From the IMG/VR virus record IMGVR_UViG_3300031997_000009, positions 1 through 63,570 of that record: a stretch of 63,570 nucleotides of DNA. One strand, written 5' to 3'. The notes under the pieces were generated by a model. It saw nothing but the letters and a program-made list of their open reading frames with translations, was not told the origin of the DNA and did no database searches. Both the position numbers and the translations under genes were made by a program. This stretch comes from a virus. Taxonomy: Duplodnaviria; Caudoviricetes. Of this stretch, positions 5,100 through 39,109 are shown piece after piece (positions within the stretch are counted from its first letter, which is position 1; each line of letters starts with the position of its first letter).

Positions 5100-5283
5100 A
5101 AAAGAAAAAGCGTTCCCCGTTAATATGCTATTACATCACGGATAAAGGAGAGAGGATGCGAGTCGAACACCGCGGAAAATATCGCTCCTGCCCGTGGATA
5201 GCGGCATCTCGATGCCATAACAAATCGTGTGAACTGGCGGGCCCTCGCCTGCTCAACCATAACCAATAACAGGAGGAGGATTA

Positions 5284-11051: not shown

Positions 11052-13223
11052 CTATAGAACCCTGCCGTCAATCCTTTTTGGGATAATGTACTTGATTTTG
11101 CTCTGGTGCCCTTCCGCAAATATCTTCTCTGTCTTGTTCAGAAACTTCTCCTTGCTTCCGCGTTGGATAATCTGCCCCTCTTTCGTTATCGTGACACCGT
11201 AAGGAATAAGAGGTATCGGCTTCCTGTCCATGCGCTTGGTCTGGTGGAGCATGGAGATGATGTTGCCGAGGGCCATGCACAGTCCGTAGCCTTCCACCGC
11301 AGGCCTTTCGTTATCTATCACCCACGTCTCGAGCTGTGTTTTGAGTCCGATAAGGTCGGGCAAAATCGTTATTCTGTACTCGTCCAGCATCCGGTTAAGG
11401 TACAGGATCGCGCCGTTAAGGTCGAAGTGGAAGTTCGGCAGGAGCGCAACCATGTGCTTATTCTGCCATGCCAGGTACGGGCCATCCTTGATATTGGTCA
11501 TCTCAAAAGCCTGGTCTGATATTCCGAACATGGCCCGGTTCGCGTACCATATAAATCTTCGGGGGCGGACCCAGGTTTTGTGCTGTTCGTTGTACATATT
11601 CACGACATTTGTGAGGCTGGTAATGATAGCGTCGGGGCCGCCCACGTTCGCCACGCCCTCATAGAACAGCGTCAGATGCCCCGTCTCCTTGTCCCATATA
11701 CCCACGAGGCAGCTCTCTTTCATATCGCGCTCATGCCACACCGAACCAATGATTTCCGCACGCTTGATGTTGAGAAAGTTGAAGGGGACGACGACGTTTC
11801 GGAACACGCTCTCCCGGAGATTGATGAGCTTAGGCAGGATCCTGGGCTTGTCCTGGCTATTGGAACAGCAGAGTACGAGGGCATCGGCACGGTCGGGACT
11901 GCGCTTTATCCTTTCCTTGAAACTCTCCTTGGGCTCAATCTTCTGTCTGCTCCTGTTGTCGAGGCTGGTTTCCCAATTACGTCCACACAGCTCCTCAATC
12001 AAGGCGTCGTCCTGCGGCAACCCGAGCTTGCCCATCATATCCCTCAGCTCCGCCCACATCACCGAGGCCGAATTGGAATAGTAATCGTTGCCGACGCCTC
12101 CGAAAAGACAGGGGATGACATCTATACCGTCTGACGTATTCCGGCGCAGGTGATCGACGACTCCGCCTCCCATAGTGCTATCGTCTATCTTAATCCTTAT
12201 CACTCTCTTGTGGTTGTACTTGGCCCGGAGCTCGCGCACGAGCGAGAGGATATTCTGCTCGGTCTCGAACGTGTCCTGCTTTTTGTATGCCCGTACGGGG
12301 AAGACCTTGTACCCGTGTCGGTAGCAGATGATGGTCTGGTCGTCTCCGAACCTTGCAACGTCCACTCCAATCTCTATTGCGCCTTCGGCAGTCACCTCCC
12401 TGTTCACGGCGTCCCAGACATCGGAAAGGGAGAGGACGGCACGCGGGTTTCCACTCGGGAAGTTGCCGAACACGCTCACCTGCACTATGTCGTGGTCGCG
12501 TCCGTAAAGGCGGATCAGGCGCAGCGCGCCCATGTCGGACTTGATTTCGTCTTCGGTCACATCGAAGTGAATTGGAACCCACATATCACGCCAGGAAGCA
12601 AGCGTTTGCGTTTTGTAAAAGTAGCCCGTTATCTTCGTAGGGTTGCTGATATGTATTGTTATTATCTCTTTCTTGCTGTCGGAAGCCTTGTTCGATGTCT
12701 GCGTTGCTTCGATAGTTTCGCTGATTTCGTCGGGCACGCCCGAACTCTCATCGACGATAAACATCTGATGTTCTTCGTGGAATCCCGAGAAGTTCTCCTT
12801 GTTCTTGGCCGTACGTGCTACCGCGAACCAGCCCTCGGGCATTTCAACGCACTCGATTTTTTCCTTTCCCCACGCCAGCATCTCCTTGAGAGGGCTGAAG
12901 TGGAGCCACTTCGCTATCTCCGTCCACAACACGTCACTCAACTGATCGGCCTTGGGCGCCGTACACACAACACGCGCACGCGGCCTTGTGGCCAGAAACC
13001 ACAGGCATAACAATGCCACGCCCGTAGTCTTGCCACGGCCGCGGCCCGACCTGACGCTGATGAATTGGCCTTTGGTCACGGCGTCGAACAGTTTTATCTG
13101 GTTGCGGTTGAGAACAGGCTTGGGATCTGTGGGATAGTAACGAAAGATTACGTCCTCCACGAATTCGCGGGGACGGTCAATATAGGGGACGAGAAGGCTG
13201 GGATCAATCTTTATCTTACCCAT
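11052..13223 (-). CDS. terL: terminase large subunit with long C-terminal extension
   Basis: Walker A SGRGRGKT, Walker B FIVDES, SNP motif, nuclease GVDVARFGDD and SPDRADAL; start placed at MGKIK. Confidence 0.93.
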   Translation of the reverse strand: MGKIKIDPSLLVPYIDRPREFVEDVIFRYYPTDPKPVLNRNQIKLFDAVTKGQFISVRSGRGRGKTTGVALLCLWFLATRPRARVVCTAPKADQLSDVLWTEIAKWLHFSPLKEMLAWGKEKIECVEMPEGWFAVARTAKNKENFSGFHEEHQMFIVDESSGVPDEISETIEATQTSNKASDSKKEIITIHISNPTKITGYFYKTQTLASWRDMWVPIHFDVTEDEIKSDMGALRLIRLYGRDHDIVQVSVFGNFPSGNPRAVLSLSDVWDAVNREVTAEGAIEIGVDVARFGDDQTIICYRHGYKVFPVRAYKKQDTFETEQNILSLVRELRAKYNHKRVIRIKIDDSTMGGGVVDHLRRNTSDGIDVIPCLFGGVGNDYYSNSASVMWAELRDMMGKLGLPQDDALIEELCGRNWETSLDNRSRQKIEPKESFKERIKRSPDRADALVLCCSNSQDKPRILPKLINLRESVFRNVVVPFNFLNIKRAEIIGSVWHERDMKESCLVGIWDKETGHLTLFYEGVANVGGPDAIITSLTNVVNMYNEQHKTWVRPRRFIWYANRAMFGISDQAFEMTNIKDGPYLAWQNKHMVALLPNFHFDLNGAILYLNRMLDEYRITILPDLIGLKTQLETWVIDNERPAVEGYGLCMALGNIISMLHQTKRMDRKPIPLIPYGVTITKEGQIIQRGSKEKFLNKTEKIFAEGHQSKIKYIIPKRIDGRVL

Positions 13224-13830
13224 TGCCACCCTTCTTTTCTTCGTCCTTTCCGGCATCGATCTCGATCATGCCCTTCATCTGCGGCAGAACCCGACGCTCT
13301 TCGTGGGCCCTATGCAAGGCTTCAAACAGAGACTCCTGCAACTGTCCGTCTTCACGGTCAGTCTTCTTGTCCGGGTCGATAGGGCGCTTCATCATTCCCA
13401 GGCCCTGCATCATCAGGTCGATGGCCTTGACTTTGTCGTGCAATATCAGCTTCACGCCCGTCTTCGTCTTCTCTATGCCCTTCACGGCCTTGCTGTTCTT
13501 GAGCTCTTTGGAGGCGAGGAGGTTTATCTTGTTCCCATCCGTCCATTTCACGAAGTCGCGAATGTCCGAGGTCATCACCGACAACAACTCTTCGAGGGTC
13601 TTCTTTACCAACTCTTCGTTCTCGAGCCTGCGCTTTTCCAGGTACGCGGACACGGCTTTGTGAATATTAGGATCTTCACGCATCCATTTCTTCACGGTGT
13701 TGATTTCGATATTGAGGACGCGTGCCGCCCTCGCGGCATTGAAGTCTATGATGTATTCTACGACAAAAGATAGCTTCCTGTCCGTAAGACCGAAGGCGTT
13801 GTCGGCGATATTGTAGCCCATATTGGTCAT
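13216..13830 (-). CDS. terS: terminase small subunit
   Basis: LTDRKLSFVVEYIIDFNAARAA and KLILHDKVKAID motifs; directly upstream of terL. Confidence 0.88.
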   Translation of the reverse strand: MTNMGYNIADNAFGLTDRKLSFVVEYIIDFNAARAARVLNIEINTVKKWMREDPNIHKAVSAYLEKRRLENEELVKKTLEELLSVMTSDIRDFVKWTDGNKINLLASKELKNSKAVKGIEKTKTGVKLILHDKVKAIDLMMQGLGMMKRPIDPDKKTDREDGQLQESLFEALHRAHEERRVLPQMKGMIEIDAGKDEEKKGGNG

Positions 13831-20763: not shown

Positions 20764-21136
20764 CTTTTTTCCTCCCACACTTGGAGCAGATATTAAGTTC
20801 AACCCCTACGCTAAAGTCGTGCTCGCAAATTCTTACGTCCTGCTGCTTAAACACCTTGGCCGGCTCTGAGGGTATTCTGCCCGTCACGATCCCGGCGATT
20901 TCATCAAAGCCATTGAGAATCTCCTTGCGCTGGAGCTCGTCATCCACGGCCGCAGATGTCTGCTTTAAAAGGTGTAGGGCTATCATGGCGATCTTGGATG
21001 GGTGCAGGGTTGTGCTCATATCGAGAGCAAAAGCCCCGGGCCCCACCTCGTCAGCCACGAGAATCAGGCGCCCTGTCGGCCTGGACAAGGGCGCAGTCCT
21101 CATTTGAAGCCTCGGATCGTTAAAAATGTCGCTCAC
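20750..21136 (-). CDS. hypothetical protein
   Basis: GTGA overlap; C-terminal CEH...CSKCG. Confidence 0.55.
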   Translation of the reverse strand: MSDIFNDPRLQMRTAPLSRPTGRLILVADEVGPGAFALDMSTTLHPSKIAMIALHLLKQTSAAVDDELQRKEILNGFDEIAGIVTGRIPSEPAKVFKQQDVRICEHDFSVGVELNICSKCGRKKDDEL

Positions 21137-21645
21137 TTATCCCCCTTCTTGTTCGGCTGAAAAATGAATTTGATGTGGCGCTGCCTCAAGAAATTAGCAT
21201 CGAAAATAAAAACAGCATGGGACTGCTGGGACGTATCCTTGCTGCCGGAGAACCGCAGGCGCTTCTGGATAAAATTAATCTCGGTGGCGAAGTAACAGGC
21301 CTGCATCCACCACTCCTGATCCGTCTTGCACGGCACAAGGAGGGCGGTCATAAACCGAAAACCCTCTGCCTGCGCGACAAAGCAAATCTTTATGATGTGT
21401 GAGGTAATTTTCCACAGTGTTTTTGTGTCATAAGGAGGGTTGCAGAATACGGCGGCATACGCCCTGGAGATCATATCGGGAGCGGTATTCTCGAAGGGGC
21501 TGCTGATGTCGCAATACTTGTCGCACAGGTTGTTTTCGGCGCTGGCGCAAGCGTCAAAATCAAAATGAAAGCGCCTGTCCAGCGCTTCAAATAACCATGC
21601 TGGCGTCCGCCATTCGCTCGACTTGCTCTTTTCAATTCGCATCAC
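21133..21645 (-). CDS. phage Dam-family N6-adenine DNA methyltransferase
   Basis: EWRTP, FDFDACAS..N, FCNPPY, LLVP..TD..W, RLRF. Confidence 0.9.
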   Translation of the reverse strand: MMRIEKSKSSEWRTPAWLFEALDRRFHFDFDACASAENNLCDKYCDISSPFENTAPDMISRAYAAVFCNPPYDTKTLWKITSHIIKICFVAQAEGFRFMTALLVPCKTDQEWWMQACYFATEINFIQKRLRFSGSKDTSQQSHAVFIFDANFLRQRHIKFIFQPNKKGDK

Positions 21646-21658
21646 TACCGCCTTTAAT

Positions 21659-21961
21659 TTAGGCCAAATCGTTTGCCGACATATATTCTCGGCTCAATAG
21701 CTTATCGTGGTGTTTTTTGTCCAGGAATTTTCTATCCGCATCGCATGGAATTGGTAGAGCTTGAACCTGCCCTCCAGGATTAATACCCAGGCGGTGTGTT
21801 TTTTGGAGAGCATGGGAAAGGCCTAAGGCCTCCGTAATAATAACCCCGCGGAACCCATCTTCTGCGGCAAAAGAAAGCCACCAGAGCTCCGACTTCCCAG
21901 CCTCAACTTCTTCTGAAAGTCGCTCACCGATTCTTTGCTGGACTTGAGATTCGCTTAACAT
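21659..21961 (-). CDS. hypothetical protein
   Basis: WWLSFA...FRGV...LGINPGGQV conserved-looking pattern. Confidence 0.65.
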   Translation of the reverse strand: MLSESQVQQRIGERLSEEVEAGKSELWWLSFAAEDGFRGVIITEALGLSHALQKTHRLGINPGGQVQALPIPCDADRKFLDKKHHDKLLSREYMSANDLA

Positions 21962-22146
21962 CTTTTCTCCTTTTCCCGGTCTTGTTTAATAAGATCTTCC
22001 AGTGCTTCCATAAGAGAGACAGGGCGTTGCAAGCCTATCGACATAAACCCAGCCCAAACCAGTGCCTTGCGCCCAGCCAACTCCCTGCGCGTCCACTCTT
22101 CCCCGCTCTCTTTCAGGTATTGCCATTTGTACTCCATCGAATTCAT
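21955..22146 (-). CDS. hypothetical protein
   Basis: GGAGA RBS before MNSMEY. Confidence 0.55.
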   Translation of the reverse strand: MNSMEYKWQYLKESGEEWTRRELAGRKALVWAGFMSIGLQRPVSLMEALEDLIKQDREKEKRC

Positions 22147-22182
22147 CTTTTCTCCCGAACGCTTGCGTGCGTTCCGTCTTCC

Positions 22183-22318
22183 GCGAAACGGATGGCGCAA
22201 TGCACGCCGTTAAATTTTATCATAGCTACAGTTAGGACACATTTCCTGCAACACAATAGGCACAACCATCTTGTCACAGTTGGGACACTTTTTTAATGGC
22301 TTGCTTGCGCTGTTGTCC
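22183..22318. repeat. attC-like site E0 (136 nt)
   Basis: GCGAAAC ggatg GCGCAA-t-GCA-c-GCCGTTAAA ... TTTAATGGC-t-TGC-TTGCGC t GTTGTCC. Confidence 0.75.
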
Positions 22319-22428
22319 GATGGGGGCGCGGGCCGATATGATGGGCAATTAGGAGGGCAAAGCCCGTTTTCCATAATCGTATGGTTATGATATTCTACAT
22401 CAAAAACACTGGAAGCATATTCTGTCAT
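22210..22428 (-). CDS. cassette C1 protein with C-terminal zinc ribbon
   Basis: AAGGAG RBS; CPNC...CPNC encoded inside E0. Confidence 0.6.
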   Translation of the reverse strand: MTEYASSVFDVEYHNHTIMENGLCPPNCPSYRPAPPSDNSASKPLKKCPNCDKMVVPIVLQEMCPNCSYDKI

Positions 22429-22446
22429 TTTCTTCGCGCTCCTTTC

Positions 22447-22586
22447 GGACAACGGTCAAGGCACCGGCCCGACCGACTATTATTTTATATTGTCGGGGCG
22501 GATGGGGCGAAGTGCGCCAACTCCCACTGCTCTTTACATTCGGGACATAAGTATGTGGGCGCATTTTGCCCTGCTTGTTGTTGTAC
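22447..22586. repeat. attC-like site E1 (140 nt, branched)
   Basis: GGACAAC...GTTGTAC with internal stems CCGGCCCGAC/GTCGGGGCGG and GGGCGAAGTGCGCC/GGCGCATTTTGCCC. Confidence 0.8.
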
Positions 22587-22805
22587 GCTGGATTTTGCGA
22601 TGCCTTGCGCCGCCTCTTTGTGTTCCGGTATTTCGGGGTGACGGATAAGCATATCAGATTGTAGTGCAGCATTCCAAGCGCATTCCGCTAAATCCTCTTT
22701 GGATATTTCAGTGAGCCTATTTTTGTTTTGAAAAGTAGCCACCCACCAATCCGAAAACGACAATCCTTTGCGAAACAGAAGATCGTTTATGTCTCTTTGG
22801 TCCAT
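22485..22805 (-). CDS. cassette C2 hypothetical protein
   Basis: AAGGAGA RBS; FSDWW...AECAWNAA; stop lies inside E1. Confidence 0.65.
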   Translation of the reverse strand: MDQRDINDLLFRKGLSFSDWWVATFQNKNRLTEISKEDLAECAWNAALQSDMLIRHPEIPEHKEAAQGIAKSSVQQQAGQNAPTYLCPECKEQWELAHFAPSAPTI

Positions 22806-22854
22806 CTTTTCTCCTTGCCTTGCGGCGCTGATTTATTTCCTCGCAAAATCTTGC

Positions 22855-22928
22855 GTACAACGGTTGCGAATGGCCGCAGTAAACATCAAGCCTCCGCCTC
22901 GTTTATTGCGGCCTTCGCGTTGTTGCAT
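22855..22928. repeat. attC-like site E2 (74 nt)
   Basis: GTACAAC ggtt GCGAA-t-GGCCGCAGTAAAC ... GTTTATTGCGGCC-TTCGC gtt GTTGCAT, one bulged base. Confidence 0.88.
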
Positions 22929-23290
22929 GGGGCATCTTCGCCCGTACCGTTTGCCCGCTCCCCGCCCACGGATGGGCGGTCTTCGATGTGTTCACGCACT
23001 CCGTCTTTATCGGGCGGACCCCATGTTCTTTTTTCGTTGCCCGCCATTTTCTTTTCCGCTTCCAAGATAAGCGAGAAATTGTTTTTGTGGGCGAGGTGGT
23101 AAAGCAAAAGCAAGCAGTCCGCAGACTCTTCGGCAATGTCCGCGTGTTCGTTGGACTCAATAGCGGAATCGAGTTCCGCGACTTCCTTTTTAAGATGTGC
23201 TACGATTGATTTGCTCGTAGCCCCAGGAAAGGTAGAGTAGGCCCACATTCCAACATAAACCTGAAGCGTATTTACCGTTATGTCTTTCAT
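22886..23290 (-). CDS. cassette C3: MazG-like/DUF550 dNTP pyrophosphohydrolase
   Basis: WAYSTFP...HLKKEVAEL...EESADCLLL...KMAGNEKRTW; start at MKDITV after AGAAAGGA. Confidence 0.8.
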   Translation of the reverse strand: MKDITVNTLQVYVGMWAYSTFPGATSKSIVAHLKKEVAELDSAIESNEHADIAEESADCLLLLYHLAHKNNFSLILEAEKKMAGNEKRTWGPPDKDGVREHIEDRPSVGGERANGTGEDAPCNNAKAAINEAEA

Positions 23291-23341
23291 TCTTTCCTTT
23301 CTTGCGGCCCCGGATGGGCCGCTGTCTTGCGGGCAAATGGT

Positions 23342-23434
23342 ATGCAACGCCCGTTGCTTGCCGAAGTTTGCGTACTCGCAAATTTGGGAGAGCGCCGGAA
23401 ACCCCGGCGCGAACCGGCAAGCAATTTGTTGCAT
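23342..23434. repeat. attC-like site E3 (93 nt)
   Basis: ATGCAAC gcccg TTGCTTGCCG ... CGGCAAGCAA ttt GTTGCAT with two internal hairpins. Confidence 0.88.
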
Positions 23435-23458
23435 GAAGTAAAACCCCGCCGTTTTTCA

Positions 23459-23782
23459 TTATTCTGATGCCTCGATAATGTCCGCTGCCGCCCGTAATGC
23501 TTTTGATTTCAATCTTAGGTAGCTCACATACGCACCAAGGCATGACCCTGCCGCACCGATAATCAGGGCGCACATCAGCAGCACGATGGAAAGATTTGGT
23601 ACCGTGATTGATATCGTTGACATTTAGTCCGCCTCCCTTTTAATTTTGTCGAGTTGCTGCGCCGTGTATGGCTTGTTCTCTTCCGTGATAACGCCGCCCA
23701 GCGTGGCAACATCCTTGATAACGGCAACCGGAAGCATGGCCGTGTTGACCGCAGTTCTGATTAAGGCTCCGAATAATCCCAT
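23459..23782 (-). CDS. cassette C4: two small hydrophobic proteins (23624-23782, 52 aa; 23459-23623, 54 aa)
   Basis: translated by hand: MGLFGALIRTAVNTAMLPVAVIKDVATLGG... and MSTISITVPNLSIVLLMCALIIG...; both have an RBS. Confidence 0.65.
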
Positions 23783-23841
23783 GTTTTTCCTTTCTTGCGG
23801 CCTTGGCCGCTCCCGCTTCGCCTTCGGCGGGGTTTTATTTT

Positions 23842-23925
23842 ATGCAACGGGAAGCTATGCCGAAGCCGCGTCAGCGGTTTGCGGTGCGGGACTTGTTCCC
23901 GCGCCCGGCATAGCGTTTGTTGCCT
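23842..23925. repeat. attC-like site E4 (84 nt)
   Basis: ATGCAAC gggaa GCTATGCCG ... CGGCATAGC gttt GTTGCCT. Confidence 0.88.
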
Positions 23926-24427
23926 GCTGTGTTTCGGCGCGGTCTTCTGTCTTTATGAATGCGACCCAATGAGTCTTTTGCTGCTTTCCGCTTTTGTGCC
24001 CGAAAAGCGGCCGGTAGGGCGTGAGCGCCAGAATACGCGAAACCGGAATTTCATCGGCACACCACTTGAAAACAAGGACGCCATTATCTTTAAGAACGCG
24101 GAACGCTTCGGCAAACCCAGCGCGGAGCATCTCGCTCCAGTCTCCTTTAAGAGTACCGTACTTTAACCCCACCCATCCGGTAGCACCATTGCGCTCAAAA
24201 TGTGGCGGGTCGAAAACGACCAAGGAGAAGGAGCCGCTTTCAAAAGGCAGGGCCGTAAAGTCGCATTGATAATCGGGGTCGATGACAAGCTCACGGCTCC
24301 CTCCAGTGCTGGAAATGTCAGGAAGTGTGCGCCGCTCTTTGCGCTGGTCCACAAAAACGGCCCGCTGGTCATTCTTGTCAAACCAGAACATCTTGCTTCC
24401 GCAGCACATATCCAGGACTGGCTTCAT
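23855..24427 (-). CDS. cassette C5: SAM-dependent amino-type DNA methyltransferase
   Basis: VLDMCCGSKMFWFDK (motif I), VVFDPPH (motif IV), FRVLK..G.LVFKW; start at MKPVLD. Confidence 0.85.
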   Translation of the reverse strand: MKPVLDMCCGSKMFWFDKNDQRAVFVDQRKERRTLPDISSTGGSRELVIDPDYQCDFTALPFESGSFSLVVFDPPHFERNGATGWVGLKYGTLKGDWSEMLRAGFAEAFRVLKDNGVLVFKWCADEIPVSRILALTPYRPLFGHKSGKQQKTHWVAFIKTEDRAETQQATNAMPGAGTSPAPQTADAASA

Positions 24428-24483
24428 TCTTTTTCTCCAGCGGGCTTGCCCCGCGTTAATTGTCTTCCGCGCCGAAACATTGC

Positions 24484-24673
24484 CGGCAACGTCCGACCCA
24501 TTAAGCAGTTGGTTGTTTCTGCTCATCACATTTAATCAACCGATTGAGGCGGTCGATTCCGGCATTCAAAAAGCCACGCGCCTTTTCAATATTTCCACTA
24601 TTCAAACAAGCACCAGCCATGTCAAATTGAACCTTGGCGTCTTCGACCGCCGCCTTAATGGGGCTTGTTGTGC
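24484..24673. repeat. attC-like site E5 (190 nt, branched)
   Basis: CGGCAAC gtccga CCCATTAAG ... CTTAATGGG gctt GTTGTGC; internal stems CAGTTGGTTG/CAACCGATTG and GGCGGTCGA/TCGACCGCC. Confidence 0.8.
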
Positions 24674-24842
24674 GAAGTGACGCGCCTGCCTTTAATTCTT
24701 CAAGTTCGCTAAATGTTTTTGCCAAATCGTTCAGGACTGTGTAAACATCGGGGGGATACATTGTGTCCTTACCAAACGGCAGATAATGATAACGAGCCTG
24801 GAAGCGTTTAGCAAACAGCTCAAAACTTTCATTTGCATTCAT
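24501..24842 (-). CDS. cassette C6 hypothetical protein
   Basis: AAGGAGA RBS before MNANESF; about half of the ORF lies inside E5. Confidence 0.65.
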   Translation of the reverse strand: MNANESFELFAKRFQARYHYLPFGKDTMYPPDVYTVLNDLAKTFSELEELKAGASLRTTSPIKAAVEDAKVQFDMAGACLNSGNIEKARGFLNAGIDRLNRLIKCDEQKQPTA

Positions 24843-24874
24843 TGCTTTTTCTCCTTGTCTTGGCGCGGCATTTT

Positions 24875-25000
24875 GTACAACGGATTGCCCCACTTTGGGA
24901 CGCATCCACAAATATTATTTTTCGTCCCGAAGAATGGGCGAAGCGTTCCGCTTCTTCAAATCAATTTTTGCGGAACGTTTTGCCCTGGGGCTTGTTAGGT
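24875..25000. repeat. attC-like site E6 (126 nt, branched)
   Basis: GTACAAC ggatt GCCCCA ... TGGGGC tt GTTAGGT; internal stems CTTTGGGACG/CGTCCCGAAG and GGGCGAAGCGTTCCGC/GCGGAACGTTTTGCCC. Confidence 0.85.
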
Positions 25001-25355
25001 GCTGTTTTACAAATTCGTTTAACAGGTAATACGCCTTGTCCACGCAACAGCACATCCCCTCTTTTTCATCAATATCTTTTTCGAGCAGGTCTTCAAAAAG
25101 CGGGAAGCCTTTTAGAACGCGAAATAACTCATTGTCAACTTGCTTGCCAGTCTTTGTTTCGATAACGTGGCAGGCGTCTAAAACAATCGACATTATTTGA
25201 TGTTCGACATCACGTAGCAGCCCAGTAAAGCTGACGCCATCAGTTTTGCGAAACATATTCTGGTAGCTCTCGCTTTTTTCGCGTTCTATTCTTCCCGCCT
25301 CAAATAGACCTGTGAGAACTTCTTTGATTGCTGTTGCAGTCACTTTCTCTACCAT
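24915..25355 (-). CDS. cassette C7 hypothetical protein
   Basis: GAAAGGA RBS; 146-aa ORF with stop inside E6. Confidence 0.7.
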   Translation of the reverse strand: MVEKVTATAIKEVLTGLFEAGRIEREKSESYQNMFRKTDGVSFTGLLRDVEHQIMSIVLDACHVIETKTGKQVDNELFRVLKGFPLFEDLLEKDIDEKEGMCCCVDKAYYLLNEFVKQHLTSPRAKRSAKIDLKKRNASPILRDEK

Positions 25356-25393
25356 AATTCTACCGTCCTTTCAGACAACACTTGTAAAATTGC

Positions 25394-25471
25394 ACCTAAC
25401 GCTATGCCGAAGGGCGAAGCGGATTATTCAAAATACATCCTTTAATCCGTTTTGCCCTGGCGCTGTTGTAC
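25394..25471. repeat. attC-like site E7 (78 nt)
   Basis: ACCTAAC gctat GCC-ga-AGGGCGAAGCGGATTA ... TAATCCGTTTTGCCCT-GGC gct GTTGTAC. Confidence 0.85.
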
Positions 25472-25741
25472 GCAAAACCGGCGATGATTTTGATTGCGCC
25501 GATTCAATTAGCCCCTCTGTTTCAATTCTGTCTCTTAAATAACAGAACTCTCTATTTGTCATATCCAAAACCACTCTGACCATATTAGTATGTTCGCTTA
25601 CCCCACCTTTCGTTCTAAACCTATCATGCTTTACTATTTTCATTTCCATTTCCCACAACAAAGACAGCGCATTCTTTCAACCGGGAATGTAAATCGTGGC
25701 CACGAATGACCAAATATTTTACAGAATAATCTTTTAATCAT
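25428..25741 (-). CDS. cassette C8: two small proteins (25640-25741, 33 aa, CxxFGH...CxxC DUF1660-like; 25428-25643, 71 aa)
   Basis: translated by hand: MIKRLFCKIFGHSW...RCLCCGKWK, ATGA overlap to MKIVKHD... Confidence 0.6.
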
Positions 25742-25787
25742 GTCTTTCCTTTCTTATCGGCGCTCTTGGCTATTTCGCCGGTTTTGC

Positions 25788-25854
25788 GTACAACTACCAC
25801 TATGATGCAATAACATTCACCCTATGCTCTGATTTTGCACGTAAGACGAAGCTG
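25788..25854 (-). other. attI-like entry site (or decayed attC)
   Basis: minus strand TTGCATCATAGTGGTAG|TTGTAC: core GTT present, but no matching AAC arm and only a weak stem upstream. Confidence 0.5.
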
Positions 25855-26772
25855 CTACACGGATTCTATTGCGAACCTGAACGTGCCCCTGCTGTCGGGC
25901 TTGCCCTCGATCTTGTACTTGCCGATAAGGATTTTCAACGACTGCCCCTTGGCTGTGGCCACGACGCGATTGCGAATGACCTCGTAGATATCGTCGCACT
26001 CTTTCGCGTCAGACTTCATGGACAGGTACTTGTCGATCCTGTGCTCAAACTCTGGATCGTCGGCAATCTTCATCTCCGTACCGAAGTTCATGCCAGGGGC
26101 GCATACGGTCTTCATCGGACAATCCTTGCACACCTCCACGTCCTTGATGCGCTCGGGCAGGGTGCCGGCCTTCACATGGGTGTTGATGGTCTCGCAAGCC
26201 TTGATACAGGACTCGGCGAGGGCATAATCGAGCTTAACATCCACGGTCTTGATCGCGCCCGTGCTCTTGTTTTTGAGGATGAAAATGCCGTGATCGACGT
26301 TTTTGCCGAGGAGGTAGATCTGGATCTGCGCGAGGTAGGCGCGCGTCCATGGCTTTTTGTTGAAGTCGTCCAGGCACTTGATCATGTCGTAGATGTGCGG
26401 CGCCATGCTCTTGATTTCAATCGGAACCGCCACGCCATCGTCCACGATCACGCCGTCGAGATGCCATGTGATGTTGTACTTCTCCCACTCGCCCACGCTC
26501 TGCTGTTCGATCACGGTTATGCCTGCGTCCTCGAGCATACGCAGAACCGCCTTCTCCTCGCGGTTGCCCTCGTCGTAGATCATCTGCAGGCGCGTGTCCG
26601 GAAGTTCCTTCTCCTGCCAGCGCGTGCGCTCGAGCGCACCCCGGCGTAGACAGCCGTTGAGTTCTGGAACATAATGACCCACGCTCGACGCGCGATTGCT
26701 CTTGCAGGGGATACGCTTGATACGGGTCTGGACGTTCTTTTCGACCGCCTCCACGATATTTATCATTGTCAC
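25855..26772 (-). CDS. Cas4-like PD-(D/E)xK exonuclease
   Basis: RASS...CLR, HLDG, IEIKS, QIQIY, CKDCPMKTVC (1+3 Cys Fe-S pattern). Confidence 0.85.
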   Translation of the reverse strand: MTMINIVEAVEKNVQTRIKRIPCKSNRASSVGHYVPELNGCLRRGALERTRWQEKELPDTRLQMIYDEGNREEKAVLRMLEDAGITVIEQQSVGEWEKYNITWHLDGVIVDDGVAVPIEIKSMAPHIYDMIKCLDDFNKKPWTRAYLAQIQIYLLGKNVDHGIFILKNKSTGAIKTVDVKLDYALAESCIKACETINTHVKAGTLPERIKDVEVCKDCPMKTVCAPGMNFGTEMKIADDPEFEHRIDKYLSMKSDAKECDDIYEVIRNRVVATAKGQSLKILIGKYKIEGKPDSRGTFRFAIESV

Positions 26773-26860
26773 TCCTTAAAGTTAAAGCGCGGTTTTTAGC
26801 TCCATGGATAACCGCAAACCATCCGGGGGAGAAGGAAAGCAAGGAACTCCCCGGTTCACT

Positions 26861-27808
26861 TTACTGTCCGGGCTCGGGCGGCGGAGGCGCTTCCTCGTTG
26901 CCTTGCGCCTGTTTGCCGAAGAGCTCGTAGTGCTCCTTCTCCACGGCCGGGACGAGATGCTTCATCATGGCCTCGCTCACGTCCTCGATCTTGGTCTTTC
27001 CAGACACCATCTTATTCTCCCTGTTCTTCCACGTAGTCAGGCGCGCAAGGGATTTGGACGCGAGATCGGTATCGCCATCGGCCATTTCCAGTAGCATCTT
27101 CCAGACCTTACTCTTGGCGTCGGCGGTCTGCGGGGCCTCGGTCTTGCCACCCTGCGTGCCCTTGCCGTGACGGACCTGAACGCACAGAGACTGCGTGATC
27201 TTGTTCCCGGTAGCGGCCGCGATCTCATCCCACGAGAAGCTCATGCCCAGAAGGCTTTTGAGTCCGCGGTTAAGCGCGTTCGTAAGCGCCTTCTTCTTGA
27301 TGTCGTTGATGTCGATCTCGGACAGGGGCAGAAAATACTTCTCGCTCTTGTGCGTCTGCGCGTCCCATTTGCTGCGCTGCGCGAAGAACTGATCGTGGGT
27401 GCTGCACGACCCGATTTCTGGCACGCTCCGTCCCGCGTAACGGACGGTAGTTTCGCATTGGATATTAATGAATTCGCCCTTATCGTCCGACACGATCTCC
27501 TGTGTGAACCTGGGCGTGTCGTAGCTGACGCCAAAGGCCGAGGCGATCTTGGCCGTTCCCGTCCACATCAGGTAGGGCTTGCCGTCCTGATCGACAAGGT
27601 CGTGGACGTTAAGCATATTGATACAGGCCTTTCGGATACGGCCCTGCGCCTCCATGTATTTCTCGATACGCTTCGTCTGCGCCTCCACACCCTCAGCGGT
27701 CGAGAGATCGATCTGGGTGTTGTCACGCACCTTAATTTGCGTGCTCTCACGAACATCGACTTCGCCGACGCCAGCGCTCTCGGGATCTTTTGCCTTCTGT
27801 TCAGCCAT
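26861..27808 (-). CDS. putative single-strand annealing/recombination protein
   Basis: adjacent to the exonuclease; KPYL..TG..KIA..F and KKALTNALNR motifs; acidic/Pro-rich tail. Confidence 0.5.
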   Translation of the reverse strand: MAEQKAKDPESAGVGEVDVRESTQIKVRDNTQIDLSTAEGVEAQTKRIEKYMEAQGRIRKACINMLNVHDLVDQDGKPYLMWTGTAKIASAFGVSYDTPRFTQEIVSDDKGEFINIQCETTVRYAGRSVPEIGSCSTHDQFFAQRSKWDAQTHKSEKYFLPLSEIDINDIKKKALTNALNRGLKSLLGMSFSWDEIAAATGNKITQSLCVQVRHGKGTQGGKTEAPQTADAKSKVWKMLLEMADGDTDLASKSLARLTTWKNRENKMVSGKTKIEDVSEAMMKHLVPAVEKEHYELFGKQAQGNEEAPPPPEPGQ

Positions 27809-28067
27809 GACGGCCTCCTTTTGAAAGTGGACGATCAGCATCGGCAGCATCCCACCTGTATTCAATAACAGGTCGGCCAGTTTCCGACGCTCCTTCTTGT
27901 TTCAAAATCTTAAACCTGTTCTTTTTAATGAGCCTAAGGTCGCGCTTGAGGTCGGCCGTACCCGTAAGGGCTACGATCTCGGCCTCGCTGTGCCACATCC
28001 CGTCCGCCAAAAACTCGAGTACGCGCCGGGCCGTTGGAGACGGGTTTGTTCCGCTCATATACATCAC
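27801..28067 (-). CDS. small winged-helix protein
   Basis: RVLEFLADGMWHS...LKRDLRLIKK...IEYR. Confidence 0.6.
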   Translation of the reverse strand: MMYMSGTNPSPTARRVLEFLADGMWHSEAEIVALTGTADLKRDLRLIKKNRFKILKQEGASETGRPVIEYRWDAADADRPLSKGGRHG

Positions 28068-28519: not shown

Positions 28520-28940
28520 CGTTTACGCCTATGACTTCAATTTGAATCTCCCTGTCCCTGCCGGCCGCCTTCATAAATTCATTGAAGGCCACCCTGCTTT
28601 CGAGGACACCTACTGTTGATTTCCTCGCCCACGGCCGTCCCTTCCAGACGAGCCCGTGATACTTGCCAACAAGAACACAGCCACTTGTATCAGCCAAATC
28701 GTTGCCGATATGCACCTGTATTTCATCACGCCCAGGAACGTCTTGAAGTTCATAACACCACCCGTGTTTAGGACTGTTCACGTACTTCGCCACATACAGG
28801 CCCTGCGGGAAGCAGGACAGGTTGTGCTCGTTATTCACCCATGGGGGCTCGAAGGTGTTGACCAGGGGTATTTCGTTTAAAAACATGGAGCCAAGGGTAA
28901 ACCCCTTCTGATAATACCGCAGCATCGTAAAGACTTTCAT
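28506..28940 (-). CDS. DUF5675-like protein, candidate endolysin
   Basis: TFEPPW..N....SCFPQGLY...DVPGR..IQVHIGN...DTSGCVLVG. Confidence 0.8.
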   Translation of the reverse strand: MKVFTMLRYYQKGFTLGSMFLNEIPLVNTFEPPWVNNEHNLSCFPQGLYVAKYVNSPKHGWCYELQDVPGRDEIQVHIGNDLADTSGCVLVGKYHGLVWKGRPWARKSTVGVLESRVAFNEFMKAAGRDREIQIEVIGVNDGIK

Positions 28941-28948
28941 TTCGCCTC

Positions 28949-29056
28949 CTACATCATTCCTGGGAAAATTCTGTTGGTTTCGTCGAGCTTGCAGGCCAAG
29001 TCCACGAACAGGCCGTTATCGACAACAAGCGCGGTAATGTCTTTGACGTTTTTCAT
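28949..29056 (-). CDS. 35-aa ORF, possibly a gene remnant
   Basis: translated by hand: MKNVKDITALVVDNGLFVDLACKLDETNRIFPGMM. Confidence 0.4.
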   Translation of the reverse strand: MKNVKDITALVVDNGLFVDLACKLDETNRIFPGMM

Positions 29057-29058
29057 TG

Positions 29059-32000
29059 TCACTGATTCCTTATGCTAAAAGGCTGTTCGCCTTCACCGGC
29101 CGGCGCGACCTCCGCCTGGGGCGCTTTCTTTTTCGGTATAATTCCCGTGCCGAGCTTGTTCATCTGTGCCGCCCAGGTGTTGAGAAAATCCGTCTGCTGG
29201 GCAATAGTCTTCTGCTCGGTAGCGGTGTCGCCACGCTCGCGTGCGGCCTTGGCAATCTTATTGAGGTTAGACATGGCAGTATTGACGTACCGCGTGAGAT
29301 TGTAGGCCATAATCTCGTTCTGGTTCTGGTCCAGGAAGGCCTTTGCGGCCTCGGTGTCTGATGCCGCCAGATCCGTATATTGCTCCCAATATGCCTGTAG
29401 CTCATCTTTCTTGCGGTAAAACATACCCTTGCTGGCGTTAGGAAGCGGAGCGCCTTTGATTCTGCGCCAGAAGGGGATCTCTCTGGTCGCAGGCAGCTCC
29501 GCGCCCGGGACTCCACGAGCATATTGCGCGGTCTTCCATCCCGAACTCACGCCCTTCATCAGAAAATCTCCAAGGCCACCGACCTGTTGTTTGATGAAGT
29601 AGTCAAACAGCTCGGGCGTAATGTCCACCATTCCAGGCCTGTACTTGCTCCCGCCCGTTATCTGGTTCAGCCTCTCCGCAACCGCTTTTGACTGCGCGCT
29701 CACGCCCTTGAAATACATCTGGCTCTCAGGTTTCCACTTCTCATACATCGCTCGTTCCGGGTACATGGGATTGCCGGCGAAATCGGTATTCAGGCGGTAG
29801 TCTTCGTACCAGCGAATAGCGGTTGGAAACATAGTCTGAGCGACATTACCGGAACCGAGCGGATTGAACGATCCCACGATATTAGAAAGAATGTTGGCGG
29901 TAGCCTGTTCGGGCTTCGTCACGCCCCTGGTCATGGACTCAAAAAGCACGCCCGTGGCATAGAATACGCCGAAGTTGAACGGAAGCGGAATCTTATAATA
30001 GGTTCCGTCGGCCTTGGGGATAATCCAGTTCCGGGTGCGGGTAAAGAGCGGTATCTTCTCGTAGTTCTCGTCACCCATCATCATCCGGCCCCACTCCGCG
30101 AAACCCACGCCCATCGTGCCCAGGCCCACGGTAAAGGCTACGCCCTTCGGCGTTTTGAGGATTTGTAGTGCGCGGCGGTTTCCCTGCATGGCCGCATTCG
30201 CGAACATATACAGAGCGTTGAATGTCGCGCCCCATTCGCCCTTGCGGTTGAAGTTGACGGTGAGATTCTTCGCGACCTGGGCCGCGCGTTCGGGTGAGTA
30301 CCCGTGCTCGCGCATGACCTTGAAACAGGACAAGCGCGTTCCGTTTTCGACCGCGGAGTTCATAACGTCTACAAAGTCTTTGACGCCGAAGACAAACTTC
30401 TTGAGGTTGTTCATGGCGCTCTTATCCATGGAGTTGATTTCGCTTACAAAGCGCTTCTGCACAGACTCGAGATCGTTGAAGTTCACGAACTCGACCGTGC
30501 CCCCGTGCTCGCTGAATTCGCGTGCCCACTTCTGCGCATCCGTGATTCCGGACTCCCCTATCATCTTCAGGATCCACTTTCCCGCCACATCCTTTTCCTT
30601 GAACAGATGTCCGTACATACCCTTCATCATCCTCGGCACGCCAAAGGCTATCTGCGCCGCCATCGCCGCGCTGTGCTCGGACGTGATGTTAATCATAGCC
30701 TCCTGTAAGTCACGCTGGAAGTTGGAGATGATGAATTCGGGACTCCATCGCGTGATCATGCCCGCGAGGAAGCGGTTGTACGCACCCGCGGTCCTGACGA
30801 TTTTAGCGAAAGTGCTGTCGTTCATGGTGCCCATGTTCTTCATCGCGTTCGCCAGCGCGTCGTCGTTTATGCGGATAATATTGTCTTCGCCGTTGACCTT
30901 AACAACCACGACATTGGAGGCGCGCTTCCAGTTCGGGGTGACAATTTCCCAGACCTTGTTGTTGGGGCTTTCCATCACCAGGCCCAGAAAGGCGCGCCCG
31001 ACCTCATTCCTGTGCGCAGTAATGATGTCTTTCTGAATCTGGGTGAGAATGTTGGCGATTATGTTATCGGCATTGGCCATGGTCTCGCGCCCCATCGCCG
31101 TCTTAGGCTTGTAGCTGACGCTAAACCCCTTGGCTCCGCCGATAGGGCGGAACTCGGCTTCGAGATCCTTAATCTGCTCTGCCGTAAGCCCCTTCATTCC
31201 CAGCATCTGCGCGTCCTCGGACTCCTGGAAGCCCTTGAGCGGGACGTAGTTTTTCCATGCCCGGTTCCAGCCTTTGATTGTTTCCGCGCTCACGAGGCCA
31301 TACTTTTGCAGGACGTATTCGTGGTAAGTGTTGATGTTCTTGACCATCTTCTCGATTTTGTACAGCTGCGCGAGCTTCTCCGGATGTACGCTCATTTGTT
31401 TGATTATGGCGTCGGCAATAACATCGAACATACCCGAGGAGGGGTTAAGCTGCTCAATGCCATTGAAGAGAACTTTCTGCGCGAACACAGGGTTAATCTT
31501 GGCGCCACTGGCGTTGCGCTCTTTTGCGTGTCGGGCATAGAGCCAAATCCCGATTTCGCGCACGTTCATGCCCGAATCGTGAATAGCTCTTTCGAGTGGT
31601 AACACGTAGTTGACGCGGAAGGAATCGAGCATGGCCTTGGTCTTGCCGTGCATTATCTCCTGTTTCAGATACGCGTCAAAGGCCTCAGGGATCTTCCGCA
31701 CCTGCTGAATCGCCTTCTGGACAAACCCAAGGCGAGCGAACTCGTCAACAGTCTTGCGCTTAAACCACTCGCGAATGCCCTCGCCCGCGACCGTGAAGGA
31801 CTCGTACGCGCCTTCAGGGCTCATGGGGTCGGCGGGAGGGGGCTTGGGAATTAGGGCGCCGCCGGCAGGAGGCGGGGCCTCCGCACCCTTGCGGCCGTAG
31901 ATATGCTCCTCGGCCCTGCGCACGCGCTCCTGTTCCGGGATCTCCTCGGCAGGCTTCGCCGCCTCATCAATCGGCATGGGCTTTTCTTTCGCGAACAACG

Positions 32001-35000
32001 GCTGTCCCTCATACAAGACCTTATCTCTCATCGCCGGCGTGATGTCGAAAGCGGGCTGGTTTTCATGAACGCCCTTGTCCGCAAAGTCACCCTCCTCGTG
32101 AGCCCTTCCTCGTGCCTCGTAGGGAATGTTTATTTTTCCTACTTTCCCACCGCCGAGCCTTCTTAATATGTCGTCGGCTACCTGGGGAAGCATCTCGTCA
32201 TAGAATCTTATGAACCCCTTGCCGCCTACGGTCAAGCCTTTTCCGGTGATCTCTCCCGACTCCTTTCCCATTATCTCAGCGGCGTTGGCTTTATTGGATA
32301 GGAGTTCGGACAGGGGCTTGCCGATCCATTCGTTATTGCCCGATGAACTGTCCAAAATTTTACCCTCACTATCTACATAAACCCTCACTTCACCTGATCG
32401 CTTGGTGTCGAGAATAACCTTTTTTACCGCGAGCAGTCTCGGATGTTCAATTCCTGGACCTGCTGCCAATGCGTTATCGTACTTCCCCCACCTTACTCCA
32501 TTAAGCACCGATCTCATGCTTTTCGACCATCTCGCCACTTGCTGTATGCCAGTCGTCCACGCAACCCTATCCATCCCCCGTTCCGCCGCATAGCGTATGG
32601 CGCGTTTCAAGGCGAGACCAACCCATGCCTTCGTATTCGTAACAAAGGGGCCGCGAGAAACGCCGGTACTTACCAATTCCCGAAAATGATCCGCGGCATC
32701 AGTTACATCGTTTTGTGCTTGATGATACTCGTTTCTTGCAAGAAATTCCTTTCTCGCATCAGATTTTTCGCCCCGCTTTAGGGCTTCCGAGATGGCGTCC
32801 AGCTCGCGGGCTGCAACAGCAAATCTTTCTTCCGCTCTTTTAAGCGTGGCCTGGGCGGTTTCGATGGCGATCCTGTCGTATTTTCCGCCTTCTTTCCTGT
32901 AGCTCTGTCCCCAATCGCTTTGGATTTCTTCAAGAAACAAAACCTTTTTGCCTTCGGCATCCACGCGCTCGTTGAAGCGTATCCACGCAAGCACATTCTT
33001 AATTTCAGGATAATGCGGGCCAGCGGCCAATTCCGGGCCCGGAAGCGAAATAGCCAGCTCGCCGTAATTTTCTCCGCCGGGAAGGCGCCATAATGGGCTC
33101 ATGTATTGGGGTACTGTTCCAGGGTAGTTTCGTTCTCGAATATAATTGTCAATGGTTTCTTGGGGAAGAATGTCAACCATCCTTCCGTTAAAATTCAGCC
33201 TGAGTTTTGTTGGCTCAAAATCAGACGGCCGTGTCTGCCATAAGTTACCCAGCGGGTCGGTAAAAGACCGTTCTCCATCGGCAGGCCCCTCCCATGGAAT
33301 ATCCATTTTTCTAACGGCGAGCATCGTGGTTTCTTCGGGCTTTGGAACGCCGGGCCCTATTTTGTCTTTGTCGTACTTCCCGTCCAGGTATTCGATTATG
33401 GTATTGCGCTCTACCGGCGCCTCGTCCACAAGCTCAAGAAATTCCTTGATCCCCGACCATTCGATCTCGTCTTGTTTGATGCCGAGCTTGCCCTTGTTAC
33501 TGTCGAGCCATTGGATCCATTGTTTGCCCTTGAGATTGTCGAATCTGGCGGGAGCATTCTCGAATGCGCGCTTGAGAACGGAGTAGAACGTGGGGGCGGT
33601 AGGACCCCCACCTTCGCGAGCGTACCGGGTCGTGGCTTTTTCACGCTCGTTCTTGTTCTTGAGCCGGCCCAGGACATCGCGAATTATGGCATCAATCTCC
33701 TCTGTCCGCGTGTACTCGGTGAGCCCAAAACGCTGCAGCAGGCGCTTAAAGAAGGCGCGGATCATTCCCTTGACCGTGACGTTGGCCTTGGTGTAGCTGC
33801 GGGCGTCGTAGCGTTCGATCTGCTTGGCTATCCACTCGTCCATGAGCACGTCGGGGGTGGCGTCACGGTAGGTATGGAATACCTGCACGCGCTCGATATA
33901 ATCCCGCAACTCCTTGCTCTTGAGCCAATTCTCTTTGTACTTTGATTTCAGTTCTTCCGTTATCCGGTTCAAGGGCGTGTCCTGAAAATACTTGCGGTCT
34001 TCCTCGAACAGGCGCTTGATGACGTCGTGGATCCTGGGGTCGGAACGGATTAAGGGAGAAGCGCCGAAGTGTCCTGCTATTTCATGGACGAGGATGCGCC
34101 GGAGCTCGGATGCGGGCAGGCGCGAACTGATGGTGACACGGGCTCGTCCGTCTGCGCCCATGAAGATTTCGGCCTGGGCGTCAGGTGGAAGACGGCCCTC
34201 GGTATCGAGAACGATATCGAGATTTTCCGGCTTATAGTGCCCGAAGTAGTCTTCGAGAACGGTCGCTGTTACCTTGGATACTATTTCTGGCGCTCGCCCC
34301 ACGGCCGTAGAAGGACGGGGGCGGGGCGCGCCCACTACCAGACGGTTGCGCCTGGACAGACGCCATTGTCCAACATCAGTATTGGGCAAGACCTTCTTCA
34401 GGTCCGCCATCAGCGAGTTCCAATCGTCGGCGCTGACCTCTTCCATGTCGCCGTCGGGGTTGTCCCTCTTCATCTCCGCGCGCCGGCGGGCCGCCTCCTC
34501 GTTTTTGTTCGTAATCTCGCGCCGGGCATCGTCCTCACTCTCCCATTCCAGGTCCTGCTGCTCGTCCCGGAGGCGCTTTACTTCTTTCCTTATCGCGGCT
34601 TCGGTAATTTTCTCTTTTCTGGCCGTAAGCGTGGCACGGGCCCGGGCCTGGAGCTCGGAGTCGGTGACGACGATGTTGTCTGCCCTGATTTTTTCCACTT
34701 CCCTGGCAATGTCGGCCTCGCTGATGCTTTTCTTCTTCGACACCCCGCCCCTGGCCGCGACATCGCGACGCCGAGCCTGAATTTGGTTGCGGGCCATCTG
34801 CTTGAGCTCGTTTTCGTCGGCGACGAAGACCCGGCGCTTGACCTTTTCCGCGGTCATGTAGCCGCCTTCGCCCTCGACGGCTATGCCCACCTGTGTAAAC
34901 ACCTTCTTCTGCGCAAGATAGTCTCGGACTTCGTAAGACTGTCCGGACTTGGTGTAACCGTCGTCGTGAAGCTGCTGCCTGATCCCGTCTACCTTCTGTT

Positions 35001-37368: not shown

Positions 37369-38424
37369 TTATGGTTTCCCGATAACGTATTTGCTCATGT
37401 CCAAAGGCGCGGCCGCTCCGGCTCCGAGCTTATTAATCGCGCTCAACAATGACGCGCCACGATAGATTCCCTGCTGCATCCGGTATTGGTCCAGGTCCGC
37501 GGCGAGGGTGTGAATTTTTTTGTCGATATCCGTGATGCTCTTGTTGATGGCGTCGTCGTCGCCCTTGAGTTCGGCCCACGTCCACGTCTCCATGGACATT
37601 GGGCTCTTTGCTTTTCCGAGCTTACTCTTGAGGGCGAGCTTGGACTGCTGCAGGTCATTTTTTTCCTTGATGAGATTCCTGACGTCGTCTTCTTTTGCGT
37701 CAGCAATTTTTTCCGCCTCCTGCTTGAGCTTCTCCCCCTGAAAGCCCGCTCCCGTTCCAGCAGCCTTAGCCCTGGCCTCGGCCTCTAAAGAAGGCGCGAC
37801 CTTGGCCTGTTCCACGCCCTCGCTTCCGAGATCAGAAGCCTGCACGCCCCTGCGCGCTGCCTCTGCCTTTATCTCTTCGAGTTTCCAACCCGGGTGCTCG
37901 GCCTGTATTTCGCCGTAAACCTTCAGCGCCGCCTGGCTGGCCGTGCCCTTGCGTTGCTGTTCCGCGGTCTTGGCCTGCTCCTCCTGCCTCTTCTCGCCCG
38001 CCTTCCCCTGCAAGGTCTCGGCTGCGGCCACCCGCTTCTCCAGATCCGCGAACATGGCCTTGGCACCGTCCTCGCTCGCGCCGAAGATCGCGGTCTCGAA
38101 CTGATCCTTATCGGGCAGAGCCACATTCAATTTCTCCGCCTGCGCGAATAAGCTCATGCCCACGCCCAGGTGCGCGAGACCCTTGCCGAACTCCTCCGCC
38201 GTGGTCTCCTGTTTCACCACCGGGGCCAGATGAGGCATTTTTTGGATTATTTCGTTTTTGGCCTTCAGCAACAGCTCTTCCTTGTTCTTGGCTTTTTCCC
38301 ATGCCGCGTAATCCTGTGTGGCCTTGTTTACTACCGCACCCGCGCCGACCATGGTTTCGGCGACTTTGCCGTAGGGGCCGGCGATGTCGATGGGCGCATA
38401 CGCCTGTTCGAGAGAAATGGGCAT
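37369..38424 (-). CDS. putative ejection/internal virion protein
   Basis: Ala/Lys/Glu coiled-coil protein between tail genes and the giant protein; start at MPISLEQ. Confidence 0.6.
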   Translation of the reverse strand: MPISLEQAYAPIDIAGPYGKVAETMVGAGAVVNKATQDYAAWEKAKNKEELLLKAKNEIIQKMPHLAPVVKQETTAEEFGKGLAHLGVGMSLFAQAEKLNVALPDKDQFETAIFGASEDGAKAMFADLEKRVAAAETLQGKAGEKRQEEQAKTAEQQRKGTASQAALKVYGEIQAEHPGWKLEEIKAEAARRGVQASDLGSEGVEQAKVAPSLEAEARAKAAGTGAGFQGEKLKQEAEKIADAKEDDVRNLIKEKNDLQQSKLALKSKLGKAKSPMSMETWTWAELKGDDDAINKSITDIDKKIHTLAADLDQYRMQQGIYRGASLLSAINKLGAGAAAPLDMSKYVIGKP

Positions 38425-38426
38425 GA

Positions 38427-39092: not shown

Positions 39093-39109
39093 ATCTTCTC
39101 CTTTTATTA

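Follow-up and report, generated by a model that had tools for sequence, protein, structure and literature searches.

Positions 22189 to 25794 of the virus record IMGVR_UViG_3300031997_000009 probably hold an integron-like array, a row of eight mobile gene cassettes; the phage genome around it is complete and encodes no recombinase. The window that we analyzed is the whole record, 63,570 bases of a tailed phage from sediment, which CheckV rates as 100 % complete and which has no terminal repeats. Each of the eight units is a spacer hairpin (E0 to E7) followed by a gene body (C1 to C8) that begins with a GTT core and ends with an AAC core. The account that holds for these units is that the two ends of each cassette are halves of one folded site, rejoined only when the cassette is circular. 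We observed private pairing of the cassette ends, extra stability of the rejoined site, a strand polarity of G:T pairs and natural reshuffling at the AAC cores. A plain classical integron fits the array less well, since there is no IntI, the unpaired bases lie on the other arm of the site, and related arrays are linked to an Xer-like recombinase that lacks the insertion.

The two ends of each cassette pair with each other

A preliminary description of the array, made from the letters of the DNA, had claimed that each cassette end has its pairing partner at the other end of the cassette, not across the hairpin. For each body, we took the 26 nt from GTT onward and the 26 nt up to AAC, and compared the first stretch with the reverse complement of the second. 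A cassette's own left and right ends (its arms) match over 19 to 24 nt in seven of the eight (C1, 19; C2, 23; C4, 24; C5, 24; C6, 20; C7, 21; C8, 20 nt). The arms of C8 are perfect over 20 of 20 positions, and those of C2 match at 19 of the first 21. C3 has the weakest pair, 7 nt plus a displaced 9-mer, TTTGCCCGC, just as described before, and all eight end strings quoted at that time are present in the sequence.

The pairing is private to each cassette. Of the 19 letters at positions 4 to 22, native pairs have 14.4 in common, permuted pairs 6.2, and the best permuted pair 11. When pairs are scored by duplex energy, the native assignment alone among 40,320 permutations attains its own score, on both strands, and it is still the unique best on the + strand once the shared 7-nt core is removed. 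Permuted pairings as good as the native one, the result that the preliminary description had named as fatal to its claim, were thus not obtained. Across a hairpin in the array, the neighboring arms pair at -5.3 to -11.4 kcal/mol, the level of permuted pairs, against -15.6 to -28.9 kcal/mol for native pairs, which bears out the claim that the ends do not pair with their hairpin partner. The cores do depart from GTTRRRY, as had been noticed: seven of the eight read GTTG with a pyrimidine at position 5. Most arm mismatches set G against A; as G:T pairs, they occur 10 times on the + strand and once on the - strand, and six of the eight cassettes have a G/A mismatch at position 11.

In integrons, the core pairing of the R box covers 7 nt by consensus. 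As a classical control, we used 14 cassettes of a Vibrio chromosomal-integron fragment in phage MK672802 (positions 28879-40481; accession from Qi et al. 2023). Private end pairing is present there too, and it stops at 9 to 11 nt, past the usual 7-nt R box. At positions 12 to 22, native pairs match at 8.62 of 11 and permuted pairs at 2.95 in the phage array, against 2.64 and 2.88, respectively, in the Vibrio control. Since native and permuted pairs are much the same over these positions in the control and not here, the long outer stem is a real difference. At about 20 nt, it is about twice that of the classical integron control.

Inverted repeats that start with GTT and end with AAC flank each gene, and one could read each gene as a miniature transposon with terminal inverted repeats, or the repeats as RNA terminators or processing sites. 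We consider this extremely improbable. The repeats differ among units beyond the core, so that one transposase could not read them, and the genome encodes no transposase, serine recombinase or HUH enzyme. The G:T pairs favor the strand antisense to the genes, and all 12 terminator-like matches lie on the + strand, with 0 on the gene strand. Moreover, an Rfam search found no family at threshold; its sole match was a sub-threshold microRNA, a chance match, and Rfam has no matching model. A promoter scan gave 3 sites against 4.6 expected.

The rejoined site folds on the strand antisense to the genes

If the arms are halves of one folded site, that site can be rebuilt from the sequence. When folded, E1 to E7 all form a hairpin closed by AAC/GTT with an inner stem. 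We then rejoined each site in silico from the right arm, the cassette's own left hairpin and the left arm. The native site was the most stable in all eight cases, so that circularizing and folding the cassettes, a check proposed in the preliminary description, came out in favor of its claim. The rejoined site gains a mean of 13.7 kcal/mol over the same hairpin in its array context; for C1, the values are -34.8 and -22.8 kcal/mol. Folding is more stable on the + strand than on the - strand in 8/8 rejoined sites, and the folding strand is therefore antisense to the genes.

A ninth core, AAC at 22187-22189, was not remarked on before; it opens E0, a complete hairpin that lies left of C1. With an arrow marking the border of core and spacer, all eight spacers, E0 (22190-22311) included, start as AAC↓G and end as T↓GTT, and the last AAC of the array is followed by T. 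On the strand with the G:T pairs, the AAC arm has 2 to 4 extra unpaired bases in all 7 folded hairpins of the window, and the extra bases are on this arm in all 11 related hairpins too. In the classical attC site as outlined in PMC5027507, the extrahelical bases are found on the other arm, near L'' and across from the cleaved AAC.

Cassettes are reshuffled in sediment metagenomes

The array, or parts of the stretch around it, occurs in 16 sediment-metagenome runs, four of which we examined (X5, X6, X8 and X9). Their contigs contain the same cassettes with different neighbors, which is what the preliminary description had suggested looking for. A joint of 24486 to 22450, with CAACG common to both sides, occurs in three of the four runs. 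Record 18 of X8 (1689 nt) reads E4-C5, then E1 with 395 new nt, then E3-C4, then another spacer. Whole contigs of X5 correspond to 23346-23849, exactly E3 plus C4, and to 23845-24491, E4 plus C5. Elsewhere in X8, E5 plus C6 has other neighbors (record 20), E7 plus C8 and the right flank stand behind another body (record 22), and the C1 body directly abuts E4. In X5, X8 and X9, E1 comes after the C5 body, and other inserts in X5, X6 and X9 are flanked by the arm regions of C2 (22580-22613 and 22807-22861). The cassettes are independent mobile units, found in other orders with other neighbors. The earlier proposal that each had existed as a circle with an outer stem of about 20 bp and had arrived independently draws support from the Vibrio control, from the stability of the rejoined sites and from these contigs. 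Two joints, 22092 to 23320 in X6 and 22454 to 22578 in X5 (side 24), are not understood, and we did not use them.

The pairing of the ends does not by itself assign the hairpins to their genes. We at first favored a crossover at G↓TT on the + strand, with a unit made of the body and its right-hand hairpin, on two grounds: the AAC arm carries the extra bases, and homologues of C6 swap tails at the core. Among these homologues, the C6 body is found with other tails and the C6 tail with another body, the switch being at LRTT, the core. We rejected this model because C4, C5 and C6 have their right-hand spacer swapped in variants and retain the left-hand hairpin. Since the kept unit is the left hairpin plus the body and the right hairpin changes, the crossover falls in the AAC core of the + strand. 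It lies within CAACG at the + strand AAC; read in gene sense, this is G↓TT. The contigs resolve it to 5 nt. Integration at G↓TT, as put forward in the preliminary description, needs one refinement: G↓TT is read on the gene-sense strand, and on the + strand the contigs place the crossover at AAC. Each cassette owns the hairpin to its left in window coordinates, downstream of its own gene, and not the one to its right.

The right end of the array has no hairpin. This end is likely the insertion end, comparable to attI, and it looks like an attI-like end that has lost its enzyme. Contigs break at 25791 in X6 and X9, and a contig of X6 joins other sequence to the flank at 25784; these breaks fit insertion at the hairpin-less end. 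The hairpin-less end also resembles that of 12 recombinase-linked viral arrays, in which an end of the form AAC↓TA(c/t/g).ATAT stands just before the recombinase gene, and the other flanks listed start as AAC↓G.

Relatives of the array adjoin a gene for an Xer-like recombinase

Neither PF00589 nor TIGR02249 has a match in the phage record. One metagenome contig, L013 (1672 bases), carries a C6 relative that shares the arm signature, about 60 nt behind the end of a gene for an Xer-like recombinase. Between the stop codon of that gene and the first cassette (632-665), L013 has AAC, 20 nt and GTT, too short for a hairpin. The recombinase of L013 and a full-length relative of 268 aa score best on Xer models. 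On the integron-integrase model, which has a cut-off of 265, both reach 137 to 151 bits and align as two segments, with the central part of the profile left out. Recombinase gene and cassettes share one direction in L013 as well as in AT-rich arrays, though the sites are of opposite polarity.

Relatives of the L013 recombinase occur in 62 viral loci, with 27 to 41 % identity over most of the query, and at least two spacer-like hairpins are present in 35 of the 62. The density of such hairpins is 31 per 100 kb in these loci versus 4 to 8 in three control sets, and the arrays of related viral loci sit just before the recombinase gene. We delimited 121 cassettes of these relatives by their hairpins alone. 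In these, end pairing extends to about position 15, and 87 have G/A at position 11. Among the AT-rich relatives, the gene lies on the folding strand in 94 of 118 cassettes, against 0 of 8 here.

We also looked for the arm signature in other loci. In 80 bacterial loci with relatives of the enzyme, no signature arm pair occurs in array orientation; one locus, L124, has one pair of the reverse pattern. As a control set, we took 74 viral loci that encode relatives of the C5 methyltransferase; no arm pair in them has the position-11 signature, from which it follows that the C5 gene is not a cassette elsewhere. A DNA motif built from E6 and E7 gave 12 matches in viral contigs, none attC-like, and we discarded them as chance matches.

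The same signature is found in Polaribacter phage P12002L (NC_028924; our locus L156), which has no annotated recombinase. Five arm pairs lie within 29237-40945, four of them with A/G at position 11, and a sixth pair, G/A, is at 14622. P12002L has nine minus-strand spacer-like hairpins, eight of them within 29237-40945.

Observations against this reading and alternative sources of mobility

Several observations weigh against an integron-like array of mobile cassettes that an Xer-like enzyme moves at its cores. The evidence for reshuffling consists of assembled contigs, not reads, and comes from 4 of the 16 runs. Breakpoints are not all at AAC: in X8, E1 is followed by the 395 new nt, in X9 other sequence precedes 22578 and 22920, and there are breaks inside C2 and C4 near their leaders. 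A comparison of homologous cassettes between arrays gave one usable pair, in L025 and L056, whose bodies are 95 to 96 % identical and whose flanking spacers both differ. The unpaired bases lie on the opposite arm to those of classical attC, which makes the analogy to IntI chemistry inexact. The phage genome encodes no tyrosine or serine recombinase, Y1 transposase or HUH enzyme, and the link to an Xer-like enzyme comes from one short contig of a GC-rich lineage plus distant AT-rich arrays. Finally, the activity of IntI1 on phage attC sites makes a host IntI possible (PMC9892861).

By its anatomy, the array would qualify as a CALIN. Clusters of attC sites without an integrase (CALINs) occur in virulent phages, with cargo that includes DNA methyltransferases, and IntI1 recombined 5 of the 6 phage attC sites tested (Qi et al. 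2023, PMC9892861). A classical host IntI, which has the extra domain, could then have provided the cassettes and still move them, and the long arms would be incidental. The AAC...GTT layout of the hairpins agrees with this, and P12002L, with its arm signature, is one of the CALIN phages of that study. We nevertheless regard this explanation as unlikely. The arms pair over 19 to 24 nt against 9 to 11 nt in the classical control, and the unpaired bases are on the opposite arm to classical sites. The related arrays adjoin an Xer-like enzyme that lacks the insertion and scores far under the integron-integrase cut-off, and the 80 bacterial loci of enzyme relatives hold no array-orientation arm pair with G/A at position 11, the one pair of L124 being reversed. 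In its main text, supplements aside, PMC9892861 has neither "complementar" nor "Xer", and long private arms, an Xer-like partner and natural reshuffling are not described there. A literature search, mostly at the level of abstracts, turned up no description of long arms or of an Xer-like link.

Homologous recombination between short shared modules (hairpins, leaders and arm families), performed by the phage's own genes, would be another source of mobility. A gene for a Cas4-like exonuclease adjoins the array, hairpin families are 95 to 100 % alike across loci, and some of the breakpoints noted above lie inside cassettes near shared leaders. Such shuffling of modules has reportedly been proposed for regulatory cassettes of T4-type phages. 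In related loci, too, the same arms and leader carry different open reading frames (ORFs); arms and leader behave as a reusable frame. As an explanation of the array, however, homologous recombination appears highly unlikely: it leaves the private end complementarity and the strand-specific G:T pairs unexplained, and several junctions have only CAACG in common. A second process, perhaps homologous exchange, may be acting as well. Three copies of one frame, at 2028-2302 of L027 and at 5229-5534 and 3131-3405 of L072, share arms, leader and trailer (about 35 to 40 nt per end) and have different ORFs; among these copies, one has lost the outer part of its left arm.

Proposed mechanism and comparison with integrons

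Integrons are the textbook case of gene-cassette capture, and their chemistry is thought to need a domain of IntI that reads flipped-out bases of attC. It is quite possible, and we propose it tentatively, that phages run their own version of the integron. An Xer-like enzyme without the extra domain of IntI would act in it, with the crossover about 20 nt inside the folded site; the long arm and a fixed G:T, not extrahelical bases, would serve to choose strand and orientation. Cassettes for methyltransferases, nucleotide hydrolases and proteins of no known family would circulate among phages in nature, also among those that, like this one, retain the array and its insertion end and would depend on an enzyme supplied in trans.

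In gene sense, each cassette consists of G↓TT with an arm of about 20 nt, a leader with a ribosome-binding site, the ORF, the complementary arm of about 20 nt ending in AAC, the inner hairpin, and G. The inner hairpins are 60 to 176 nt long. In a circle the two arms would meet, and together with the inner hairpin and the AAC:GTT core they would make up a single long folded site on the + strand. This circle would be joined to the hairpin-less end or to another hairpin by a tyrosine recombinase that cuts AA↓C of the + strand. Integration would leave the two arms at opposite ends of the cassette; because the arms are split in this way, the ends pair with each other and not across the neighboring hairpin. 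The enzyme is presumably a short Xer-like recombinase acting in trans. For it, the long arm may serve as a full duplex binding site, in place of the reading of extrahelical bases by the extra domain of IntI, and the fixed G:T at position 11 may mark the strand.

The array resembles classical and sedentary chromosomal integrons in its single-gene cassettes, in its AAC/GTT folded sites and in the order of gene and then own site. It also shares with classical integrons the crossover in the AAC of the folding strand, the paired cassette ends and the hairpin-less insertion end; in both, the folding strand is antisense to the genes and site families are common to unrelated genes. Unlike classical integrons, it has no IntI, and related arrays have the 268-aa Xer-like enzyme, which lacks the IntI-specific insertion. 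Pairing extends about 20 nt beyond the crossover (about 9 to 11 in the Vibrio control), the unpaired bases are on the AAC arm, position 11 forms G:T, and the host genome is that of a virulent-type phage. With the recombinase-linked viral arrays it has in common an AACG...TGTT hairpin that bulges on its 5' side, as well as private arms in which position 11 is G/A. It differs from the AT-rich ones among them in that it is GC-rich (about 50 %), lacks the enzyme, has longer arms and carries its genes on the nonfolding strand (8/8).

The array and its relatives suggest a second, phage-used solution to cassette capture, with a longer duplex arm, a plain Xer-like enzyme and unpaired bases in another place. 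Between sediment populations of one phage, whole cassettes differ at the predicted borders, so that the system is seen at work, and the defined sites, strands and candidate enzyme are material for a direct test. The system also points to a route by which phages could exchange genes for anti-restriction and nucleotide metabolism.

Cassette genes and genomic surroundings

The coordinates of the array and of genes around it are collected in Table 1. The array lies in a virulent-type phage genome with a GC content of about 50 %, which also encodes a protein of 2769 aa, and the minus strand carries all genes around the array.

Table 1. Features of the array and its genome (window coordinates). Each body (C) runs from the first base of its GTT core to the last base of its AAC core; ORFs are given from start to end.
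Feature	Positions	Strand	Borders and content
Whole array	22189-25794		From C of AAC 22187-22189 to AAC 25792-25794; eight units, each spacer hairpin plus gene body
Cassette 1	22189-22452	-	E0 22190-22311, body 22312-22453; ORF 22428 to 22210, 72 aa
Cassette 2	22453-22860	-	E1 22454-22579, body 22580-22861; ORF 22805 to 22485, 106 aa
Cassette 3	22861-23347	-	E2 22862-22921, body 22922-23348; ORF 23290 to 22886, 134 aa
Cassette 4	23348-23847	-	E3 23349-23427, body 23428-23848; ORFs 23782 to 23624 and 23623 to 23459, both small
Cassette 5	23848-24489	-	E4 23849-23918, body 23919-24490; ORF 24427 to 23855, 190 aa
Cassette 6	24490-24880	-	E5 24491-24666, body 24667-24881; ORF 24842 to 24501, 113 aa
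Cassette 7	24881-25399	-	E6 24882-24993, body 24994-25400; ORF 25355 to 24915, 146 aa
Cassette 8	25400-25793	-	E7 25401-25464, body 25465-25794; ORFs 25741 to 25640 and about 25649 to 25428
Hairpin-less array end	25794-25855		AAC↓TACCACTATGATG...; also quoted as AAC↓TACCACTATGATGCAAT...
Large terminase	11052-13256
Dam-type methyltransferase	21133-21645
Cas4-like exonuclease	25855-26772		phrog_1990, E 4e-27

Two of the cassette genes could be assigned to families, those of C5 and C3, and none of the remaining ones. The C5 protein is a DNA methyltransferase (phrog_954, E 8e-68, residues 1-171), and the C3 protein is MazG-like (Pfam MazG and dATP/dGTP pyrophosphohydrolase). In 7/8 cassettes, the ORF runs through the arm into the hairpin, which supplies the tail and the stop codon. 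For C5, the last 30 or so aa (23855-23945) are encoded by the arm and E4, because homologues read in other viral contigs (3 of the 74 loci) end near residue 160. In C1, a CxxC...CxxC tail is encoded in E0, and in C6 a helical half-protein is encoded in E5.

The insertion end of the array is directly adjoined, over 25855-27865, by the gene for the Cas4-like exonuclease and one for a 334-aa protein with no family match. We found no relatives of this Cas4-like neighbor in the viral contigs searched and none of the array stretch in the phage collection searched. At the other border (21955-22189), a C6-type arm and 15 other bases take the place of the window's sequence before the gene at about 22148 to 21955 in run X6; this joint, 22174 to 24867, is not understood, and we did not use it. 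The left border of the array may vary from strain to strain.

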